A stretch of DNA of 53,410 nt, taken from positions 1 to 53,410 of IMG/VR virus record IMGVR_UViG_3300033182_000800. The stretch is one strand, 5' to 3'. Of the stretch, positions 1,542 to 50,019 are shown one piece after another. Every line of letters begins with the position of its first letter. Position 1 is the stretch's first letter. This stretch comes from a virus. Lineage: Duplodnaviria > Caudoviricetes. Below the pieces are notes generated by a model. It worked only from the letters and a program-made list of their open reading frames with translations, did no database searches and was not told where the DNA came from. Made by a program: the position numbers and the translations under genes.

Positions 1542-3227
1542 TTATGTCGTATAAGAAGAATAAATGTTAGCCAATGCAGTATCACCATAGACCTTGGTTA
1601 CTATTTTCCAAGGTACATTAGTCTTAGCATTACCACTATCGGTGTTCTTGAACGATACTGGAATTTCAAATGCAGTGGAGTTGATATTCGCAGGTGTACC
1701 AACAGTTACTTGTACTGCACCTGAACCTAAAGTATCATTACCTAGTCTTTCTGCCGAACCAATATCTGTCAAATTTACAGTTGTTGATGAACCATTATAC
1801 ATTACCATTGTATCTACTACAAATGTATTTGCTACATTACTGTCACTTCCAGAAATAGTCATTCTATTTCCATAAGTACCTGTAAGAGTCGTATTTGCTT
1901 CAACTTGTACATACACAGTATTAGTTACTCCATCACCTAAAGAAGAAATAGTACCTTCTACTCTAACCTCTATTGTATTTGCAGCACCACCAGAACCAGA
2001 ACCAACCCCGACCCAACTTGTACCATTATAGACTTCCATCAAAACATCATCTGAATTGAAACGAACTTGTCCTTGACTTGCAGAGCCAGGTCTAGCACCA
2101 GTATCTCCAACTGGTATGAGTAATGCACCAGTATTACTTGAACCGATATGACCAGCTGCATTGATATCACCACTCACATCTACTCTGAAGACTGTTGATG
2201 ATGAATTAGCAAATTGAATTACAGGAGTTGTGGCAGTGGTAGAATCATTTCGGACATAGAGAGAAGTGCCTGTTGCATTCCCATCACTCACTAGAGAAAC
2301 AAGATTTCCTGAATGAGTTCCTGTTGATGCAACTGTAATTGCTTCACCTGTAGTCAGTCCATCCATTGAGATGTTGATACCTTTACCTGATGTAGCAGAA
2401 TCGGCAGTGATATCTAAAACTGTACCAGTAAGGACTCCTTCTCCCTCAAGCTCAAGGATTGTCCCAGATGTTGCTGCAGAAGCAATTTTTGCAGTATTGG
2501 TTGTTGTTTGTTCTGCATCAATTTCAAGAGTATATCCACCAGCAACAGAATTACTGTCTATAAAAATACCTCTACCGTTTGCAGAGATGACTTCTAGACC
2601 TGTTGTACCCTCACCACCAGCATTCTGTTGATTGATCTTGACGAGAGACCTTGTAGACCCATCATTCAGGTCTTGATTGACATGAATACCAGTACCTGTA
2701 GTCTGTGATGCAAGATTGACATACAAAGCATCTGTTGCAACCTGACTACTTTCAATTTCTAATGACCTATTACTTGCATCATTACCTGTAATCTTCAGAC
2801 CAGGCTTGTTTGAATCTGATTTCTGTACGATGTCTACTGCACCGACATAAACATTTGCCCAGAGAAGAGCCGTAGTTCCGAGGTCATGGGTTACATTTGC
2901 ATTTGGAATGATGTCAGAACTGACATATGCAGCAAGATTGATTGTGTCCGTGGTCTCGTTACCCAGAGTAAGAGTTCCATCAGCAGAGATGTTACCGTTT
3001 GCATGAATGTTTCCATGAACATTCAAATTATTACCAATAGTCATACTCTTTGCAACTCCGATACCTCCAGTAGTGATAATTGATCCTGTGGTGTTACTTG
3101 TAGAGTCTGTAGAGTTAGAGAGTTTTATGAAGTTTGAAGAACCATCTGTCTGTGTCATGACCAGAAGTTCATTAGTCTTCACTCTCCATTGGTCAAAGGT
3201 TTCTGATAATGCTACGTTGGCAGACAT
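1542..3227 (-). CDS. Tail fibre / virion structural protein
   Basis: N-terminal TFDQWRVKTN motif typical of T4-like fibres; STDSTSNTTGSIITTGGIGVAK and LLIPVGDTGARP...GQVRFN fibre motifs; beta-helix-like middle. Confidence 0.75.
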   Translation of the reverse strand: MSANVALSETFDQWRVKTNELLVMTQTDGSSNFIKLSNSTDSTSNTTGSIITTGGIGVAKSMTIGNNLNVHGNIHANGNISADGTLTLGNETTDTINLAAYVSSDIIPNANVTHDLGTTALLWANVYVGAVDIVQKSDSNKPGLKITGNDASNRSLEIESSQVATDALYVNLASQTTGTGIHVNQDLNDGSTRSLVKINQQNAGGEGTTGLEVISANGRGIFIDSNSVAGGYTLEIDAEQTTTNTAKIASAATSGTILELEGEGVLTGTVLDITADSATSGKGINISMDGLTTGEAITVASTGTHSGNLVSLVSDGNATGTSLYVRNDSTTATTPVIQFANSSSTVFRVDVSGDINAAGHIGSSNTGALLIPVGDTGARPGSASQGQVRFNSDDVLMEVYNGTSWVGVGSGSGGAANTIEVRVEGTISSLGDGVTNTVYVQVEANTTLTGTYGNRMTISGSDSNVANTFVVDTMVMYNGSSTTVNLTDIGSAERLGNDTLGSGAVQVTVGTPANINSTAFEIPVSFKNTDSGNAKTNVPWKIVTKVYGDTALANIYSSYTT

Positions 3228-32827: not shown

Positions 32828-33018
32828 CGCTGAGTCACGACTCCTTGGCAAATCATTACACTACTAATTTTGCCATGATTCAGCATCATAAATGGAGTTT
32901 AACAGAATTAGAAAACATGATACCATTTGAACGTGCAATTTATGTTGAGATGCTTTCTAATTGGATCAAAGAAGAGAATGAGAGAATTGAAGAACAAAAT
33001 AGACAAAGAGGTTACTAA
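32815..33018 (+). CDS. gp51: gp51-like baseplate hub assembly catalyst, probably reached by -1 frameshift from gp26
   Basis: -1 frame reads FFRIALSHDSLANHYTTNFAMIQHHKWSLTELENMIPFERAIYVEML...; gp51-like sequence begins before the first ATG (32875). Confidence 0.75.
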   Translation, partial: FFRIALSHDSLANHYTTNFAMIQHHKWSLTELENMIPFERAIYVEMLSNWIKEENERIEEQNRQRGY

Positions 33019-34763
33019 TGGCAGCAACATTAGATGATGTAGTTAAGGCAATACGAGAAGGAAACGAAGGAACAGCAACTCAACAAGCCAAAGCTGCAGA
33101 ACAAGCAAATGAACAAAAAGTCTACGACAATCAAGTTCTAGCTACTCTCTCTTCCATATCTGATGCAATCAAGGGAATAACTCCATTTAAAATTCAAGAG
33201 ACTGATAGTAAAGGATTCCTTGGCAAAATTCTCACTTCATTTGGACTTATTGGTGCAGGAGCTGCTGGTCTTGCGGTAGGATTGGTTGGTGGATGGACTG
33301 TATTTGTTGCAGATTTAGTTAGGGATCTTGGTAAATTACTTATGAAATTTATTAATGCAATCCCTAGACCTCAATTTGTTGATGATATAATTGCAGCATT
33401 TAAAGCAGATGGAAAGGTAGGACAGTTTTTCACAAAAATCAAAAACTTTTTTGTAGGAGAAACAGGATTTATAAAAAGAATTAGCACGGTTGTAGATACT
33501 GTAGTAGATTCAGTCAAAGGTTTCACTGGTGGTATATTCACAAAAATATCTAATTTTTTTGTAGGTGAAACTAGTGTATTCAAACGAATCGGAACAATTG
33601 TAGACACTACAGTAGATGCAGTCAAAGGATTTACTGGTGGTATATTCACAAAAATTGGAAACTTTTTTAGTAAGTCTAGTGTATTATCAAAAATAGGGAC
33701 CACTGTAGATGGAGTGATGGATACTTTAAAAGCATTTGGTGGTGGAGTATTTGATGGTATAAAGAATGTATTTACAAAATTAAAATCTATAGGTTCTACT
33801 TTAATGTCACCATTTGAAGCTATAAGTGGTGTATTTGGAAATGTAACTGATAAAGGTGGTGGGATACTGGATACTATCATGAAGTTTATCAATCCATTCA
33901 AAGGTGTATTTCAAACTTTTGCAAGGATAGGATCTAAACTTGCAGCACCACTCTCTATCATCATGGGTCTATTTGATGCAGGATTTGAAACAAAAGATGC
34001 AGTAGAAAAGAGTGAGGGAGTATTTGCAACCCTCCTTAATGGACTTATCGGAGCAATGGGTGGATTTATAGATGGAGCTGTAATTCAGGTGGCAGATTTT
34101 CTAAAGGATGGAATTGCAACAGTATTGGGATTTTTTGGATTTGAAGAGACTGAAAAGGCAATGAAAGATATTTCTTTTTCCAAGAGTTTTAATGAGATGC
34201 TAGATAAAGTCTATGCATTTGTAAATGATTTGTTTGACATAGATTTTGATGCTTTGGCAAAGTCTATAATGCCAGAAAGTATCTATAACTTCTTATTTGG
34301 AGATAAGGCAGAACAAATTGCTGATTTAGAAGCCAAGATTAAAGAAGCTAGAGAAAGTGGGCCAGAAGAAAATCTCTTTAGTGCAGATGAAACTCAGGAA
34401 GAATTTAATAAGAGAATTGCAGGTTTAACTGCAGAGTTGGAAAAATTAAAAGGAGTAAAAGGATTCAAAACTGGTGGTCTTGTGACAGGAAGTGGACTTG
34501 CAATGTTACATGGATCACAAAGTGCACCAGAATTAGTATTAGATAATCAAGCTACTGAAGTCTTTCTCAAAGCAGCAAACTTACTTACGAATTCACAAGC
34601 ATTGGAAAGAATGAGAGGTGGTTCACCAGTTGTAATCAATAATGTAAACAATAGCCAAAATAACCCAGTAATATCAAATCAAGCTACAACTATGAAAGTA
34701 CCTGATGCAGTACGTTCTGGTGAACCATCATTTGGAATGGCTGCTAGAGCCATGATGAATTAA
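33018..34763 (+). CDS. Probable tape measure protein (gp29 equivalent)
   Basis: 581 aa, amphipathic-helical, with ~36-aa repeats (GFTGGIFTKIxNFF); follows gp26/gp51; C-terminal PVVINNVNNSQ. Confidence 0.65.
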   Translation: MAATLDDVVKAIREGNEGTATQQAKAAEQANEQKVYDNQVLATLSSISDAIKGITPFKIQETDSKGFLGKILTSFGLIGAGAAGLAVGLVGGWTVFVADLVRDLGKLLMKFINAIPRPQFVDDIIAAFKADGKVGQFFTKIKNFFVGETGFIKRISTVVDTVVDSVKGFTGGIFTKISNFFVGETSVFKRIGTIVDTTVDAVKGFTGGIFTKIGNFFSKSSVLSKIGTTVDGVMDTLKAFGGGVFDGIKNVFTKLKSIGSTLMSPFEAISGVFGNVTDKGGGILDTIMKFINPFKGVFQTFARIGSKLAAPLSIIMGLFDAGFETKDAVEKSEGVFATLLNGLIGAMGGFIDGAVIQVADFLKDGIATVLGFFGFEETEKAMKDISFSKSFNEMLDKVYAFVNDLFDIDFDALAKSIMPESIYNFLFGDKAEQIADLEAKIKEARESGPEENLFSADETQEEFNKRIAGLTAELEKLKGVKGFKTGGLVTGSGLAMLHGSQSAPELVLDNQATEVFLKAANLLTNSQALERMRGGSPVVINNVNNSQNNPVISNQATTMKVPDAVRSGEPSFGMAARAMMN

Positions 34764-35351
34764 GCAGTCTCTGCCAACTTTTGGAAATAGTCTAAAGACT
34801 CATCATCTTCATCCTGTTCCGCTGGTTTTGTTGGTGGTGTATATGCCTCACCCCCATCAAATGGAACCTCTTGTTGTTTAGGTTTTGACATCTCACCCAA
34901 ACCAAGTACACGATCCAACTTCTCTTTCAGTTCGTCATAAGACTTGAACTTGTCGGCACTCACCAACTCTTTTAGAGAAAACTGACTGTTCCAGATTTCT
35001 TCCATCCGTTCATCATCCTCAAGAAGAGCAGATGGTGTATCAAACTCTGACTTATCATAGTTTGAATATCCTTCAACTTTACGAATCTTCATCTTGAAGT
35101 TCGCACCTTCCCAGAGATCAAATGGATTTACTGGTGATTCATCCTCAAACTCAGGATTCATGAGGTCATTAATCTTATCAAAGATTTTCTTACCATAACG
35201 GAAGAGTTTTACCTGTCCCTCATTTTGAGGATTGGCAGGATCTTTGACCACATATACATTTGAGATATAGGTCAGACGCCGTTTCTGTTTTCGTGCAATC
35301 TCTTTGTTGGCCTCAATACCTGAATTCCAAAGGACCGAGTTGTGTTCAGAT
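34760..35351 (-). CDS. gp32: ssDNA-binding protein gp32, exon 2
   Basis: SEHNSVLWNSGIEANKEIARKQKRRLTYISNVYVVKDPANPQNEG...FDLWEGANFK...acidic tail DYFQKLAE. Confidence 0.93.
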
Positions 35352-35439
35352 CGTTTATGTTCAAATAGAGTCGTTAATTCTATTCCGTTCTCTTATGAAC
35401 TGCTTCTACTTTCATAGAAGACCAGACTATATCTTTTTC

Positions 35440-36408
35440 TCAAAGAGAAAGATTGCATTTCGGATCACTTGATCCTACTCCATTTAGGATAGTCGTTGAA
35501 CCTTCACCATACCATATTGGGTTAGGTGCTTGGCTGCTGATTGCCCAATCTAATAATTTTTTAGAACTGTCAAGTTTGCGATTTCTCGCTTCGTGTTTTG
35601 ATATTACCAATAAGCATATAGAATAACCCGAATCAATTGATGCTTGACACTTTTTCATAACAACATCATAATGTTGTTTAAGTGTATATTCAGATTTGAC
35701 CTCAATCAATAAATTTTGGTTGTGTAAGTAAAAATCAGGAAAATATATTCTTTTTTTATTATTATGAAAATATCCTACTGTAGGCACTTCACTTTTACCA
35801 ATTTTTATATCATTTTTACCTAAATGATAATCATTGATTAACGATTCTAATGCAATAGGTTCGTATCCTTGCAAAGTAACAATTGTATCAAAAAATGGAT
35901 ATGGTTTATAACCAGAACGTCCACCATAGTTACCTAATCTATTTTTTGTTTCCATCATTTTCATAAGAGCATTTTTTTTAGTCTCTTCTGATCTTGACAG
36001 ATAAGCAGTTTTAGAATGGTTGGAATAATATTCTGTTTCGGTTATTCCCATATTGACACATTTTTGTTGAATAGTTTTTTTTCGCTTTTCAACATTATTA
36101 CTCCATTTTTTTGTATTACGATAATGTTTGAACGAATCAAGTGCTTCTGGATTATTAATAAATCTATTTTTTACTGATAATCTATGGGCATCTGATTTGC
36201 AAGCACACACATCACTACAATAATCCCGATACGAAAAAGATTTATACGTAGTTTCTTTACCACAATAACAAATACCTTCATTCGGAGATTTATAAAATTT
36301 ATCATAATATTCCTTAGAAGTCATTTTTAATGTTCTTAAATGATTTAAGAAACCTCTCATAGTATTAAATCTTTTGTTTGTTACTTTACATTGTTTCCAT
36401 ATTTCCAT
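35440..36408 (-). CDS. Intron-encoded homing endonuclease, PD-(D/E)XK type with N-terminal Zn fingers
   Basis: YFPDFYL...LLIEVKS catalytic motif; Cys motifs CYCG...YCSDVC; ORF begins between P and Q and overlaps the intron core. Confidence 0.8.
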   Translation of the reverse strand: MEIWKQCKVTNKRFNTMRGFLNHLRTLKMTSKEYYDKFYKSPNEGICYCGKETTYKSFSYRDYCSDVCACKSDAHRLSVKNRFINNPEALDSFKHYRNTKKWSNNVEKRKKTIQQKCVNMGITETEYYSNHSKTAYLSRSEETKKNALMKMMETKNRLGNYGGRSGYKPYPFFDTIVTLQGYEPIALESLINDYHLGKNDIKIGKSEVPTVGYFHNNKKRIYFPDFYLHNQNLLIEVKSEYTLKQHYDVVMKKCQASIDSGYSICLLVISKHEARNRKLDSSKKLLDWAISSQAPNPIWYGEGSTTILNGVGSSDPKCNLSL

Positions 36409-36424
36409 AAATACCTTTCAATAG

Positions 36425-36432
36425 TATTTATA
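36425..36432 (-). promoter_or_regulatory. T4-type late promoter TATAAATA inside the intron, driving the endonuclease
   Basis: Exact TATAAATA followed by an AAAGG RBS and ATG at 36408. Confidence 0.75.
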
Positions 36433-36539
36433 AAATATCAGAATTTAACACTCTACTTTGTAGTATTATTAGCTTAAGGGGTTTCCAGCAATTAACAATC
36501 AGTTTCAGTGAATAATCGCTTATTCAAGCCGCTAAATCA

Positions 36540-36817
36540 ACGGGATCTTTTTGTCCAAGAGTGGTCAGAGAGTTCTCAATGTACCAGCCACCTGGCCCCT
36601 GAAACCCATGATTCCAGATACGTGCCCATGGCAGATCTTCTCCATTCGGAGCCGGAAGAAAACGAATGATGGCATAACCATTACCTGACTTGTCCAACTC
36701 TGGACGCCAGTAACGATCATCTGTATCACCGAAGTTTGAATTTGAGATTTTTTCAGTCTCTTTGATAAGAGTTGAAAGGTTGGTCTTACTACGTTTTTTC
36801 ATTTCTGCAAACGACAT
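36540..36817 (-). CDS. gp32: ssDNA-binding protein gp32, exon 1
   Basis: MSFAEMKK...DDRYW.PELDKSGNGYAIIRFLP...HGFQGPGGWYIENSLTTLGQKDPV; AAGGAG RBS; spliced protein 289 aa. Confidence 0.93.
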
Positions 36818-36860
36818 ATAACTCCTTTTTATGTGCAATGTATTAACAACGTATAAAAGT

Positions 36861-36888
36861 ATTATAACATATATTCAAGAGCTGTCAA
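36861..36888 (-). promoter_or_regulatory. Sigma70-like promoter for gene 32
   Basis: TTGACA-16 nt-TATAAT with extended -10 TG. Confidence 0.7.
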
Positions 36889-36893
36889 GTATC

Positions 36894-37121
36894 TCAAATA
36901 GGTAACTTGGCAGTCTTAGGAAGGTAGTTGAGTTTCTCAGCTTCCTCCCTTATCTGGGCCTTCAGTTTCGTATTAATCAACTGAGCCACAGTCTCTGGTT
37001 CCATGTTGTTGAGGTCACAATAGTGCATGACCGCATCCATGTAACTTAATTTCGTTTCTTCTACAAGTTTGACTATCTTTGTATAGAATTCTGCTGATGT
37101 TTGAATTTGTAAAGCCATCAC
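36894..37121 (-). CDS. gp33: Late transcription co-activator gp33
   Basis: SYMDAVMHYC..NNMEPE...LKAQIREEAEKLNYL; adjacent to gp32. Confidence 0.85.
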   Translation of the reverse strand: MMALQIQTSAEFYTKIVKLVEETKLSYMDAVMHYCDLNNMEPETVAQLINTKLKAQIREEAEKLNYLPKTAKLPI

Positions 37122-37511
37122 TTATTCCATATTATTTTTAGATTTATAATCACTAATTGCTGCCTTGATTGCATCTTCTGCCAATACGGAACAATGAATC
37201 TTGACAGGTGGTAAAGAAAGTTCTTCCACAATATCTACATTGCTGAGTTCTTCTGCTTCATTTATAGACTTACCTCTAACCCAATCAGTAGCAAGAGAAC
37301 TGGCAGCAATTGCACTACCACATCCAAATGTCTTGAATTTGGCATCTGCAATGACACCAGTTTCATCGTCAACCTTTATTTGTAGTTTCATTACATCTCC
37401 ACACGCAGGAGCGCCGACAAGCCCTGTCCCTACATCTGAAGAATCTTTATCTAATGTCCCAACATTCCTTGGGTTATTAAAGTGGTCCACCACCTTTTCG
37501 CTATATGCCAT
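37122..37511 (-). CDS. iscU: Fe-S cluster scaffold IscU (auxiliary metabolic gene)
   Basis: MAYSEKVVDHFNNPRNVG, GAPACGDVMKLQI, FKTFGCGSAIA, LPPVKIHCSVLAEDAI. Confidence 0.96.
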   Translation of the reverse strand: MAYSEKVVDHFNNPRNVGTLDKDSSDVGTGLVGAPACGDVMKLQIKVDDETGVIADAKFKTFGCGSAIAASSLATDWVRGKSINEAEELSNVDIVEELSLPPVKIHCSVLAEDAIKAAISDYKSKNNME

Positions 37512-37522
37512 ACGCACTCACC

Positions 37523-38330: not shown

Positions 38331-39169
38331 CAGTCAGACTCCACGGCCTTCAGTAGGGCTGATGCAACACCGACTTTACTTTGGTCTTTCTCTGTATCAA
38401 CAAATTTCTTGAGAAGTCCCTTTAACGTAATAGTGTCATCAACTGTCCAACCCTCTGCTTTGCCTACTACGGTGCCCCATAATCCAAGAACTTCATCACA
38501 ATCTCTTTTGTAAGTATATGGGTCTTTACCTTTTTTACTATCGTATTCGTCTGTATTCCAAACGAAAAAACATTCTCTGTAATTCTTAGCAGTGAACACC
38601 TTTCCAAATGCTGAAGGAACTTGTAATCCACTCTTTCCTATAATCTTTGGTCTATCGTTGAAGTAAACCAAAGTCAACATTTCTAAAACACCATGTTCTA
38701 CTGCCTTCTCACGTTCTAATTTTTCAAGTGAAACAAACTTGTATCTGTTTGCACGTTTTGTTTGAGGAACGATGTTGGCCATACTATATGTAGCCTTCAA
38801 AGTTTTCTTGGACCAATCATGAGATGCATCTGATGCACCTAAATGTCCTCTATCATAACCAGTATTGTCGTAATCATCATTTGTTGTTGCCACACTTTTG
38901 TCAAGTCTTTTGTCTGTGAAAAAGGGTGGTCTTGGATCTATATTCAGAAGATCAACTGTCTCTTTTGTGACTTCTGTATAGACTGCAATCGGAGACTTTC
39001 TTTCAAAGTCATAACAAATTGTAAAGGTATCAGTAAGTATCTGATCACAAGCCTTTTTAGTGAAATGTTTCTTAATATCTGCTGTTTTTGATAAACTCAC
39101 ATCACCATGAGTCTGTCCATAAGCAATAGTTCCAACCAATAAAAATAAAGTGATAATAATTTTTCTCAT
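38330..39169 (-). CDS. DNA/RNA non-specific endonuclease (NucA-like) with signal peptide
   Basis: GYDRGHL active-site motif, TYSMANIVPQ, VPSAFGKV; hydrophobic N-terminus. Confidence 0.88.
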   Translation of the reverse strand: MRKIIITLFLLVGTIAYGQTHGDVSLSKTADIKKHFTKKACDQILTDTFTICYDFERKSPIAVYTEVTKETVDLLNIDPRPPFFTDKRLDKSVATTNDDYDNTGYDRGHLGASDASHDWSKKTLKATYSMANIVPQTKRANRYKFVSLEKLEREKAVEHGVLEMLTLVYFNDRPKIIGKSGLQVPSAFGKVFTAKNYRECFFVWNTDEYDSKKGKDPYTYKRDCDEVLGLWGTVVGKAEGWTVDDTITLKGLLKKFVDTEKDQSKVGVASALLKAVESD

Positions 39170-39424: not shown

Positions 39425-39777
39425 GTGGGAGTCTTCTGTTCCCAAGCGACTCCCAAACTCGGCTATCAGTTACGCAGCGAGTGCATAATATTCTGATGCA
39501 GAAATATAATCGTTATTATTTGCGATTATGTTTAGTTGATGTTGGTCATCACCCTATTTGTTCTCACTACTACTCTCACTACCAATCGAATCCATAACGC
39601 CCCCATCATAATAACACTGCTTCCATAACCCAGATAAATCCTGCAGTTCCTATCAATATAACAACTGTAAAAAATATTAGGTCACCATCCATAAAATGCT
39701 CCAATGCTGTTATGGTGGAGGCGGCCGGAGTTGAACCGGCGTCTTGCTAGTTACCCTTATAGGTCAACGAACAAATA
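39425..39777 (-). ncRNA. ssrA: Two-piece (circularly permuted) tmRNA
   Basis: Acceptor piece with T-arm GCCGG-UUCAACU-CCGGC and CGCCUCC-ACCA (ends 39713) lies upstream of the GGGGGCG 5' end (39604); G3.U70 pair; tag ORF ANNNDYISASEYYALAA* at 39523-39470; outer ends approximate. Confidence 0.93.
39606..39692 (-). CDS. 28-aa hydrophobic peptide in the tmRNA intervening segment
   Basis: GGAG RBS, then MDGDLIFFTVVILIGTAGFIWVMEAVLL*. Confidence 0.5.
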   Translation of the reverse strand: MDGDLIFFTVVILIGTAGFIWVMEAVLL

Positions 39778-49454: not shown

Positions 49455-49994
49455 CTAGTCTTTATTGGAATGTTTACACTTATTTCCGTGCCATCTGGAA
49501 TACATTTGAGGACTGCACGATTTTCCACAAACTTCACATAAAACTTTTTTTCTGTTTTTGGCAGCCAGTGACAATTTGGCTCTGGTTTCTGCATTTGGAA
49601 TTAGTTTACCAACTTGTCTACCAGCTTCTCTACAAGATTCTCTACCTTCTTCAGAGAGTTTCCATCTACCACTAGCTACAGCTTCTTTCTGTTTTTTACT
49701 CCAATTATCTTTTGCCCATTGAGGCATTTTCTTTCCTAATCTTGGATGTTTATCACTCATATTTCTTCTCCTACATGCTTCCCTTGCAATTTCTCTGCGA
49801 ATTCTTTCGTGAGTCCAATCTCTGCAGAGAGATTTCCAAGCAATGTAATCCCATTTATTTTGATATTTTTCCCACAACAAACGATGAGCTTCTGCATGTT
49901 CTTCAATAGATAACTCAACAATATTATCTGGACTGTCCGTACCACCAGCATGTCTTGGTATGATGTGATGTTTGTGTGTTAGATATTTTTCCAT
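49455..49994 (-). CDS. Free-standing HNH homing endonuclease
   Basis: HKHHIIPRHAGGTDSPDNIVELSIEEHAEAH; NUMOD3-like HPRLGKK and ETRAKLS; C-terminal CEVCG...RWHGNKC. Confidence 0.85.
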   Translation of the reverse strand: MEKYLTHKHHIIPRHAGGTDSPDNIVELSIEEHAEAHRLLWEKYQNKWDYIAWKSLCRDWTHERIRREIAREACRRRNMSDKHPRLGKKMPQWAKDNWSKKQKEAVASGRWKLSEEGRESCREAGRQVGKLIPNAETRAKLSLAAKNRKKVLCEVCGKSCSPQMYSRWHGNKCKHSNKD

Positions 49995-50011: not shown

Positions 50012-50019
50012 TATTTATA
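50012..50019 (-). promoter_or_regulatory. T4-type late promoter TATAAATA for the HNH gene
   Basis: Exact TATAAATA, then AAGGAGG RBS and ATG. Confidence 0.75.

Follow-up and report, generated by a model that had tools for sequence, protein, structure and literature searches.

The endonuclease ORFs of the introns of bacteriophage T4 lie in the P6 or P9 loops of the ribozyme, and SegG of T4, a GIY-YIG endonuclease, is said to have been described by Liu et al. in 2003, a paper cited in PMC2988022, as a source of marker exclusion and co-conversion. In the 2010 reviews, introns of T4-like phages are placed only in td, nrdB, nrdD and gene 43, and segG is placed next to gene 32 in T4 (PMC2993671). 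The ORF of T4 I-TevI is preceded by a late-promoter motif and by a hairpin over its RBS and AUG, according to sections 9 and 12 of PMC2988022. In the recA intron of Bacillus phage 0305phi8-36, the ORF of I-Bth0305I, an endonuclease with an EDxHD motif, interrupts P5 and starts ~90-130 nt into the intron, and its product joins an N-terminal DNA-binding part to a C-terminal nuclease of Vsr-like fold (PMC3239194). I-Ssp6803I, encoded by an intron in a tRNA-fMet gene of Synechocystis, is a characterised PD-(D/E)xK homing endonuclease (PMC2677866).

Here we analysed a 53,410-nt stretch of viral DNA, referred to as the window, in which gene 32 is interrupted. The phage is an uncultured marine T4-like phage, about 30% of whose genome is present in the window record. 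We consider it very probable that gene 32 is split by a mobile, phage-type (IA) group I intron which self-splices, homes by means of a PD-(D/E)xK ORF and keeps that ORF under I-TevI-like control. Like the T4 introns, the window's intron occurs in a T4-like phage, has an IA-type core of similar sequence and carries its endonuclease ORF in a peripheral loop, preceded by a late-promoter motif and an RBS/AUG hairpin (compare the cited sections of PMC2988022). Unlike them, it interrupts gene 32 rather than a gene of nucleotide metabolism, its presumed endonuclease belongs to the PD-(D/E)xK group (DUF7487) and not to the GIY-YIG or HNH families, and its ORF lies in P5 and overlaps ~170 nt of the core. 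With the recA intron it shares an ORF that interrupts P5 and starts at a similar distance into the intron, a host gene whose product binds single-stranded DNA, and an N-terminal part followed by a C-terminal nuclease with a predicted Vsr-like fold; the window's protein lacks the EDxHD motif, however, and has a CxC...CSxxC module in place of NUMOD repeats. SegG is a parallel as an endonuclease linked to gene 32, with the marker exclusion and co-conversion attributed to it, but it is free-standing beside that gene and involves no intron. I-Ssp6803I is likewise intron-encoded and of the PD-(D/E)xK superfamily, yet its fold matches that of the window's protein with a Z of only 5.1, there is no sequence match, and size, domain make-up and host gene differ. 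In contrast to other endonuclease ORFs that enter a group I core, the overlap here is long, from P5b to P8, and is kept family-wide as an ISSQ...EGSTT tail. We found no description of a gene-32 intron in the openly accessible full-text literature; the gene-32 intron is likely new to the literature.

Gene 32 and the geometry of the insertion

Gene 32 lies on the minus strand of the window, with the following parts.

Upstream of exon 1: RBS AAGGAG
36817..36540 (-): gene 32 exon 1, 278 nt, ending ...GATCCCGT; 92 codons plus the GT of a split Val codon
36539..35352 (-): the insertion, a group I intron of 1188 nt, which starts TGATTTAGCGGC and ends ...AACATAAACG
36524..36526 (-): in-frame stop TGA that closes exon-1 translation (ORF 36524..36838), 13-15 nt into the intron
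35351..34760 (-), stop included: gene 32 exon 2; the A of the split codon, 196 codons and the stop

Joined, the exons encode a gp32 of 289 aa (92 codons, the split GT|A for Val, and 196 codons), and the ligated-exon junction expected in the window is GATCCCGT|ATCTGAAC. Exon 1 matches PHROG 224 (ssDNA-binding protein) over profile positions 1-94 (E 2.7e-37) and exon 2 over positions 97-259 (E 3.4e-70), such that the profile is continuous across the two exons. The Pfam gp32 family PF08804 is matched over 1-41 and 63-207 (E 1.1e-06 for exon 1 and 6.8e-32 for exon 2), so that the entire DNA-binding core is covered by profile matches. At intron-less gp32 loci, the residues that flank the insertion point are exactly 3 nt, or one codon, apart in 80 of 80 cases; these alleles and the PHROG 224 profile indicate that excision of the 1188 nt restores the frame exactly. 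Thus the frame restoration within the Val codon of DPVS, to give 289 aa, that a preliminary description of this DNA had claimed is borne out.

In each of the 15 aligned introns whose frame was read from the alignment rows (all of the 16 except L091), an in-frame stop lies no more than 27 nt from the splice site. At the 5' end of exon 2 there is neither a start codon nor an RBS, and a Pfam search found no intein motifs. The gp32 of the window has DPVS in place of the CPVC that holds zinc-binding Cys residues in T4 gp32; other intron-bearing alleles keep CPVC.

Structure of the ribozyme

The Rfam group I model RF00028 matches the window at 35635..35403 (-) with 54.8 bits against a curated cut-off of 50 (E 3e-11 for the whole window); together with covariation, this match confirms the 1188-nt group I intron in gene 32 that had been proposed, with its coordinates exact. 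Because the ORF splits the core, the window exceeds the cut-off by only 4.8 bits, and only 4 of 18 related intron loci reach it (intron-less controls, 0 of 2). The core resembles those of other phage introns; blastn, for example, aligns 150 nt of it at 72.5% with the nrdB/I-TevIII region of T-even phages. In the short intron of locus L205, a remnant of the ORF of ~200 nt still breaks the RF00028 alignment.

We aligned 16 distinct, homologous gene-32 introns from IMG/VR, the window's included, all inserted at the same nucleotide. The elements of the proposed structure, in order along the intron, are these.

36529..36543 (-): P1, exon CCGU and intron UG with UA and the internal guide GCGG; U36540.G36532 at the 5' splice site
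36508..36527 (-): P2 hairpin with a GNRA loop (GCGA); 8 of 8 pairs changed on both sides
36478..36500 (-): 5' strands of P3 (GAUUGU), P4 (UGCUGG; the P element) and P5 (CCCC), all before the ORF
35578..35589 (-): P5b, an extension of P5 that lies within the ORF, hairpin GCGA-GAAA-UCGC; 4 of 4 pairs changed on both sides
35500..35546 (-): P5 3' strand, J5/4, P4 3' strand (Q), P6 and P6a; the same stretch encodes the conserved ...WAISSQAP... tail of the ORF
35462..35494 (-): P7 5' strand (R, GACUA), then P7.1 and P7.2; P7 column 1262/1367 has UA in 15 introns and CG in 1
35425..35456 (-): P3 3' strand (GCAAUC), P8, J8/7 and P7 3' strand (S, UAGUC)
35442-35440 (-): ORF stop UGA, spanning the P8 loop and 3' strand
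35403..35420 (-): P9 hairpin with a GAAA loop; 5 of 7 pairs changed on both sides
35352..35402 (-): 3' tail, with hairpins GUUC/GAAC and AAUAGA/UCUAUU; it closes with the conserved GAACAUAAA-N-G, whose terminal G is at 35352

Across the 16 introns, the 64 proposed pairs in 13 helices are paired in 95.7% of alignment cells, against 33.6-42.6% when one partner is slid by 1-3 columns, and 38 of the 64 pairs show compensatory changes. The covariation score is 0.542 as against 0.154 in shuffles; of 500 shuffles, none attains the values found in the real alignment, a result far outside chance. In P1 the four exon pairs are invariant in 16/16 and the two intron pairs are compensatory. The U at the 5' splice site, its partner G in GCGG and the terminal G are identical in all 16 introns, in agreement with the P1 U.G pair and terminal G noted earlier. 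P3 is 100% paired, with compensatory changes in 4 of its 6 pairs, and P4 is invariant; in P5, column 84/1188 has CG in 12 introns, UA in 3 and GU in 1. The strands of P3 and P5 pair, with compensatory changes, across the ORF and hence over a distance of ~1 kb. The P/Q/R/S core of the preliminary description stands insofar as its elements are present and covary; its P element (P4 5'), however, lies with the 5' strands of P3 and P5 upstream of the ORF at 36500-36478 and not where cmscan placed it.

Both P7.1 and P7.2 are present between P7 and P3', each with compensatory changes, and by these two predicted helices the intron is IA-like, of the phage type. The two hairpins of the 3' tail covary by eye and, owing to shifts of alignment columns, are not included in the counts. 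P10 is weak: in the window it has 3 bp (AUC/GAU) and lies apart from P1, and by eye it is UAG/CUA or AAGU/ACUU elsewhere, with none in some loci. We also noted a possible helix that would close the ORF loop, formed by GUGUU 5' of the ORF and AACAC near its 3' end; it appears in several rows and is uncounted, as MAFFT columns shift there. The resemblance of the intron 3' end, UUGAACAUAAACG, to the start of exon 2, UCUGAACACAAC, was considered as a duplicated target or operator and was discarded, because introns at a second gene-32 site (described below) end alike beside unrelated exon sequence.

The intron ORF and its expression

The features of the ORF and of the region before it are as follows.

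35440..36408 (-): intron ORF, 322 aa; N-terminal Cys-rich module and C-terminal PD-(D/E)xK nuclease (DUF7487), a presumed homing endonuclease
36425..36432 (-): TATAAATA motif, T4-late-promoter-like, 16 nt upstream of the endonuclease AUG
36403..36435 (-): hairpin joining the TATAAATA region with the RBS GG and the endonuclease AUG

The ORF is full length and matches Pfam DUF7487 at E 2e-17. Residues E183, P224, D225, E236 and K238 are invariant in 27 sequences and make up an E...PD...ExK motif. The AF2 model has a pLDDT of 83.8, with the last 20 residues below 50, and residues 165-305 match the folds of Vsr (Z 9.8), I-Bth0305I (Z 9.2; 96/98 residues aligned) and TnsA (Z 8.6). From the model, the ORF is predicted to encode a restriction-endonuclease-like fold with conserved acidic residues and a Lys. 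The EDxHD motif was not found: the invariant set of the nuclease domain is E, D, E and K, with no invariant His. Foldseek against PDB returned nothing at E 0.001 or better, phmmer against PDB gave no match for the ORF, and neither Pfam Vsr nor DUF559 matched at E 0.1 or better. A profile search gave only weak matches, to T7 endonuclease I (E 0.4) and to YacG (E 0.19), and the N-terminal module, with its CxC...CSxxC motif, is weakly like the YacG zinc ribbon.

Located in the distal part of P5, in its loop, the ORF extends ~170 nt into the ribozyme core. The ribozyme-encoded tail ISSQ...EGSTT/FNDY forms the C-terminal end of 65 among 72 close homologues and of 28 among 140 additional representatives. 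Because the ORF overlaps P5', P4', P6, P7, P7.1, P7.2 and P3' to P8, its translation and the folding of the ribozyme would be mutually exclusive on one RNA.

The TATAAATA motif is conserved in 10 of the 16 aligned introns (those of the window, L084, L085, L087, L088, L090, L095, L100, L103 and L112), and of its 4 copies in the window, 3 precede an ORF start by 16-29 nt. It is not enriched in the window, where 2.75 copies are expected and 30 of 100 shuffles reach 4; position and conservation are what suggest that it may act as a promoter. The RBS/AUG hairpin has a predicted energy of -9.4 kcal/mol (z -4.86), which 0 of 200 shuffles equalled, and equivalent stems of different, covarying sequence occur at 7 loci (L084, L085, L087, L088, L100, L103 and L112). 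In the long pre-mRNA this hairpin would bury the RBS and AUG of the endonuclease ORF, and late transcripts that start just downstream of the intron's TATAAATA would lack the 5' arm of the hairpin and may thus be translatable.

Mobility, alternatives and spread of the family

The intron divides the Val codon of DPV after its second base. In the mechanism we favour, once the gene is transcribed P1 would form between exon CCGU and the guide GCGG, P3, P4 and P5 would close across the ~1-kb ORF loop, and the P7 pseudoknot would form; a guanosine-initiated, two-step self-excision would then yield the mRNA for the 289-aa gp32. The 322-aa endonuclease is predicted to cut intron-less gene 32 near GATCC(N)GT|, and repair would copy the intron and flanking exon sequence into the cut allele.

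The exons of the window are mosaic around the insertion site.

36540..36581 (-): the patch within exon 1, CDS positions 237-278
35248..35351 (-): the patch within exon 2, CDS positions 279-382

Between the spliced CDS and the intron-less locus L004 there is 94.1% identity, and 35 of the 57 mismatch positions fall within CDS 237-382, around the junction at 278. Within this stretch, the window differs at only 4 positions from L023, a locus to which it is 77.7% identical overall. L023 is itself intron-less, with the same 50-nt junction as the window (GATCCCGT|ATCTGAAC), whereas the L004-type junction is GATCCTGT|GAGTGAAC. By sequence comparison, this 146-nt foreign exon patch, which surrounds the point of insertion, resembles a co-conversion tract left by homing. 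As the matching allele L023 lacks the intron, no donor of the patch was found, and ordinary recombination could also explain it.

An intron that still splices but is now immobile, inherited only vertically and with an ORF product that is inactive or otherwise used (for example, in helping the RNA to fold), is an unlikely explanation, but one with precedents within the family: the intron of loci L144, L146 and L147 measures 694 nt and retains 88 aa of the ORF, and the intron of L205 is ~507 nt, relatives which indicate that ORF loss occurs in this family. The low pLDDT of the last 20 residues of the model could be read in the same way, and cleavage itself is a prediction. Against this, no catalytic residue of the invariant set is missing from the window's ORF, which is full length; the patch in the exons, centred on the point of insertion, fits recent homing; and the element occurs in gene-32 alleles with just 34-71% identity to the window's. 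It is less likely still that the insertion no longer splices and that gene 32 is broken around a free-standing endonuclease gene, to be expressed, if at all, as two polypeptides. Genes fractured in this way, with endonuclease ORFs at the break, have been described in marine metagenomes (PMC2677866), and no spliced RNA was seen among the contigs of the four runs described next; yet all conserved core elements are intact and covary, exon 2 begins with no start codon or RBS, intein motifs are lacking from the Pfam results, and gp32 is a core gene of T4-like phages (PMC2993671).

Those contigs, compared with 34700-36900, belong to a DNA run and to three others that are either listed as RNA or guessed to be RNA. 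In none of them does 36540 continue directly into 35351 within flanking sequence of the window itself. The contigs without the intron from the RNA or guessed-RNA runs are 90-95% alike, look like intron-less relatives and are uninformative on splicing: one contig of X15 skips the intron with 107 other letters in between, the length expected of an intron-less gene there, and its differences from the window, like those of the loose ends in X16 and X17, are of the kind seen in relatives. As the window is a metagenomic viral contig, its 1188 nt might in principle have been misjoined into gene 32 during assembly. We regard such an artefact as highly improbable, since a homologous intron lies at the same nucleotide in 16 distinct loci from other samples, and a 1166-nt contig from a public run, maybe of the same sample, spans 35390-36553 across the 5' junction with 6 differences.

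The mobile, self-splicing intron that we favour has relatives at two sites in gene 32, with ORFs that are intact, decayed or nearly lost. Site 1 is the (D/C)PV codon and site 2, which follows NEGxV, lies ~48 codons farther downstream; both are occupied in some genes. The family is common among related uncultured marine phages in IMG/VR, and 29 of 80 loci found by way of the ORF lie in gene 32, with exons only 34-71% identical to the window's. A separate IMG/VR scan with a 14-nt core motif was unspecific for the family, with 1 of 80 kept loci in gene 32. A permuted tmRNA and literature on SAR11 and OM43 myophages would suggest a pelagimyophage; the nearest cultured gp32 sequences, however, come from cyanomyoviruses and are 67-70% identical in exon 1 and about 55% in exon 2.

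Taken broadly, we lean towards an undescribed and widespread family of mobile group I introns, at two gene-32 sites, with uncharacterised DUF7487 homing endonucleases, of the classical PD-ExK type, whose last ~60 codons are ribozyme core; the supply of gp32 would then depend on splicing in a sizeable share of ocean myoviruses, and the late-promoter and hairpin control of T4 would be conserved far beyond the T-even phages. As gene callers split intron-bearing genes, gp32 will be mis-annotated or missed in marine viromes. The family would give a predicted function to DUF7487 and extend the known homing endonucleases by another PD-(D/E)xK lineage, the second and distinct from the first, and its natural variants, with two sites and with intact, decayed and nearly lost ORFs, suit the study of the cycle of homing gain and loss in ocean phages. 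Since gp32 is needed stoichiometrically for replication, recombination and repair, including the recombination used by homing (PMC2988022), the intron would make an essential, highly expressed core gene dependent on ribozyme activity.

An interrupted gene 32 and its intron-less alleles

The gene for the ssDNA-binding protein gp32 (gene 32) is laid out in the window as follows.

36817-36540 (-), exon 1 of gene 32
36539-35352 (-), insertion of 1188 nt separating the two pieces of gene 32
36408-35440 (-), ORF of 322 aa within the insertion
35351-34760 (-), exon 2 of gene 32

The first ORF starts at 36817 (-) behind a good RBS and encodes MSFAEM...LGQKDP; its frame meets a stop 15 nt beyond ...GATCCCGT, and a second open frame, SEHNSVLWNSG...ETA*, occupies 35350-34760 (-). 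The exon-1 piece matches positions 1-94 of the PHROG 224 profile (ssDNA-binding protein; E 2.7e-37) and the exon-2 piece positions 97-259 (E 3.4e-70), and the Pfam gp32 match is likewise split over both. When the pieces are joined, the split Val codon (GT|A) is completed and the product is 289 aa long; the coordinates, insertion length and product length all agree with the preliminary description. The closest cultured gp32 sequences are those of cyanomyoviruses.

Several lines of evidence indicate that the insertion is, as the preliminary description had claimed, a group I intron. In particular, the covariance-model check proposed there (RF00028) gave a match at 35635-35403 (-) with 54.8 bits, above the cut-off of 50. 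The intron core DNA resembles that of many phage introns (for example, 72.5% over 150 nt to the nrdB/I-TevIII region of T-even phages), and the first 130 nt of the intron are similar to the 5′ regions of Bacillus and Staphylococcus phage introns. The strongest single test comes from the proposed search for intron-less and intron-bearing alleles. Searching IMG/VR with exon 2 found at least 595 relatives; all of the best 80, which we kept, are intron-less: the end residue of exon 1 and the opening residue of exon 2 lie exactly 3 nt apart, as exact frame restoration predicts. The two exon pieces are also adjacent in the 30 best rows from cultured phages. Conversely, gp32 exons lie on one or both sides in 29 of the best 80 (of 333) loci found with an alignment of intron-ORF homologues. 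No decisive splice junction of the gene 32 exons was present in the contigs of four runs. Together with the covariation described below, the sequence data argue that the intron in gene 32 is real and its earlier interpretation right.

The surroundings of gene 32 include a two-piece (permuted) tmRNA at 39470-39775 (-) (RF04321, 96.5 bits; cut-off 47). Three intron-bearing relatives (L084, L085 and L095) also have a two-piece tmRNA near gene 32, and those of L084 and L085 are additionally matched by the alphaproteobacterial tmRNA model; two-piece tmRNAs have been reported in myophages of SAR11 and OM43 (PMC9004378). Two genes away from gene 32 lies an IscU/NifU-like iron-sulfur scaffold gene (37125-37517 (-); Pfam NifU_N, E 5.8e-54). 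Also present is a gene for a DNA/RNA non-specific endonuclease with an N-terminal signal-like segment (38333-39169 (-); Pfam Endonuclease_NS, E 9.5e-30). Converging on gene 32 is a gene (33018-34763 (+)) whose 581-aa product contains G(F/V)TGGIFTKI-like repeats and matches no Pfam family.

Structure and covariation of the ribozyme

The cmscan alignment behind the Rfam match draws the 5′ strands of P3, P4 and P5 from within the ORF. We rejected this placement: the true strands lie upstream of the ORF, where GAUUGU-UAAU-UGCUGG-AAA-CCCC at 36500-36478 matches the Rfam consensus AAUUGCGGgAAAcCcc. Homologous introns were collected with the intron ORF, which found two loci, and with an alignment of 27 ORF homologues, which found 333 relatives, the best 80 being kept. 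The window and 15 distinct loci with fixed intron ends, interrupted at the same site (site 1, in the Val codon of (D/C)PV), formed a 16-sequence alignment, on which we scored 13 helices (64 pairs) that had been specified in advance using the window and a single relative.

Pairing was found in 95.7% of cells, compared with a shuffle mean of 76.0% and with 33.6-42.6% when partners were slid by 1-3 columns; both-sided changes occurred at 38 pairs. The covariation score was 0.542 against 0.154 in shuffles, and none of 500 shuffles attained any observed value, a significance that is overstated because the structure was built from two of the 16 sequences and all are related; neither the pair-type counts nor the slid control are subject to this weakness. 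P3, whose strands are 1040 nt apart in the window, was 100% paired with four of six pairs compensatory; a single pair of P5 appears as C-G, U-A and G.U; and P7 shows one exchange of C-G for U-A. Compensatory changes were abundant in P2, P5b, P6a, P7.2, P8 and P9. P4 and P6 never vary and are thus uninformative on covariation, and P10 is weak in the window. No variation is seen in the splice-site U, in the GCGG that supplies its partner G, or in the terminal G. The P1 U.G pair, terminal G and P/Q/R/S core noted in the preliminary description all hold. The presence of P7.1 and P7.2 assigns the intron to subgroup IA.

A predicted nuclease encoded within P5

The ORF matches Pfam DUF7487 (E 2e-17), with the TnsA N-terminal nuclease domain just under the cut-off, and PHROGs labels it 'endonuclease'. 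It has 72 homologues in 90% clusters; among 50% clusters, the numbers of matching representatives at E cut-offs of 1e-3, 1e-10 and 1e-30 are 3385, 376 and 28. Cultured phages gave only seven distant matches, none in gene 32. Two sets of residues show no variation in the 27 aligned sequences: E183, P224, D225, E236 and K238, and the cysteines (C47, C49, C64) of an N-terminal CxC...CSxxC motif. In an AlphaFold model (pLDDT 83.8), the C-terminal domain (residues 165-305) best matches Vsr (Z 9.8), the catalytic domain of I-Bth0305I (Z 9.2; 96 of 98 residues aligned) and TnsA (Z 8.6); I-Ssp6803I gave Z 5.1. These motif residues and fold matches make the product a predicted nuclease with the classical PD-(D/E)xK motif. 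The protein resembles the EDxHD family (PMC3239194) in having an N-terminal DNA-binding part, a C-terminal nuclease and an ORF within P5, but we rejected membership because it has neither the conserved His nor a Vsr Pfam match.

The Pfam domain stops at residue 262. The remaining 60 codons also form P5b, P5′, P4′, P6, P7, P7.1, P7.2, P3′ and half of P8, in which the stop lies. Conservation within the ORF family is highest in this tail (...LDWAISSQAP...GEGSTTIL), even at 35% overall identity, because the tail is encoded by the ribozyme core. Among close homologues 65 of 72 carry it, and among more distant representatives 28 of 140; the proteins with this tail are therefore intron-encoded.

Expression of the ORF is likely controlled by TATAAATA, the T4 late-promoter consensus, which lies 16 nt 5′ of the ORF AUG and also forms one side of a predicted 13-bp hairpin (-9.4 kcal/mol, z -4.86), opposite the RBS GG and the AUG. 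In L084, L085, L087, L088, L100, L103 and L112, TATAAATA is followed by a stem of differing sequence ending at the start codon. The motif is not enriched in the window (four copies), and three of the four copies sit 16-29 nt 5′ of ORF starts. In T4, according to section 12 of PMC2988022, such a hairpin keeps long transcripts made early from being translated, and translation takes place from late ones that begin inside the hairpin. By analogy, the hairpin here would bury the RBS and AUG on long transcripts; it would also bar ribosomes from the ribozyme core in pre-mRNA. Elsewhere, TATAAATA at 50012-50019 and a strong RBS directly precede a 179-aa ORF (49458-49994 (-)) that contains an HNH motif (E 3e-4 to Pfam HNH, narrowly below the cut-off) and may encode a free-standing homing endonuclease.

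Mobility and the wider intron family

The spliced CDS is 94.1% identical (819/870) to that of the intron-less relative L004, and the differences are uneven: 35 of 57 mismatch positions fall within CDS 237-382, a stretch that begins 41 nt before the insertion site and extends 104 nt beyond it. Over this interval only four positions differ from a second intron-less relative, L023 (77.7% identical overall), which matches the window at 49 of 50 nt around the junction. This foreign patch, centred on the intron site, looks like the co-conversion trace expected after homing. Ordinary recombination could also have produced it, and an intron-bearing, L023-like donor allele was not found among the loci examined. 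The exon 5′ of the intron reads CCC-GT or CC-GT in intron-bearing alleles, pairing with the guide GCGG, and CCA or CCT in most intron-less ones. The final 13 nt of the intron (35352-35364 (-), UUGAACAUAAACG; UCUGAACAUAACG in L091) are similar to the 12 exon-2 nucleotides that follow the split base (35339-35350 (-), UCUGAACACAAC), probably by chance, since introns at a second site share this ending.

This site 2, about 48 codons downstream, is uninterrupted in the window and carries a related intron and ORF in L105-L107. It lies after NEGxV and before (F/Y)KFGKK; the 5′ splice site follows GTGT, the guide is GCAC, and the intron 3′ end is GAACAUAAA-N-G, as at site 1. L101 (626-1808 and about 1950-3115) and L102 have introns at both sites of one gene 32. 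Host exons of intron-bearing loci are 34-71% identical to those of the window and include both DPVS-type and CPVC-type gp32. The ribozyme is kept with only remnants of the ORF in L144, L146, L147 (694 nt) and L205 (6388-6894, about 507 nt); with their intact-looking cores, these introns look like stages of a cycle of ORF loss. Separately, 51 of the best 80 loci found with the ORF alignment (L108-L110, L113-L143, L145, L148-L163), on large phage and giant-virus contigs, match it over the nuclease domain alone (about residues 150-290) and have no gp32 nearby.

The openly accessible full-text literature searched yielded no description of a gene 32 intron. Relevant sections of two 2010 T4 reviews (PMC2988022, PMC2993671) give introns only for td, nrdB, nrdD and gene 43, and gp32 is absent from the main-text portions covered of the two papers on metagenomic Vsr-like endonucleases (PMC3239194, PMC2677866). 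The gene 32 intron belongs to a familiar class of elements, to which it adds a new example with novel features; its family in marine phages appears to be sizeable and undescribed.
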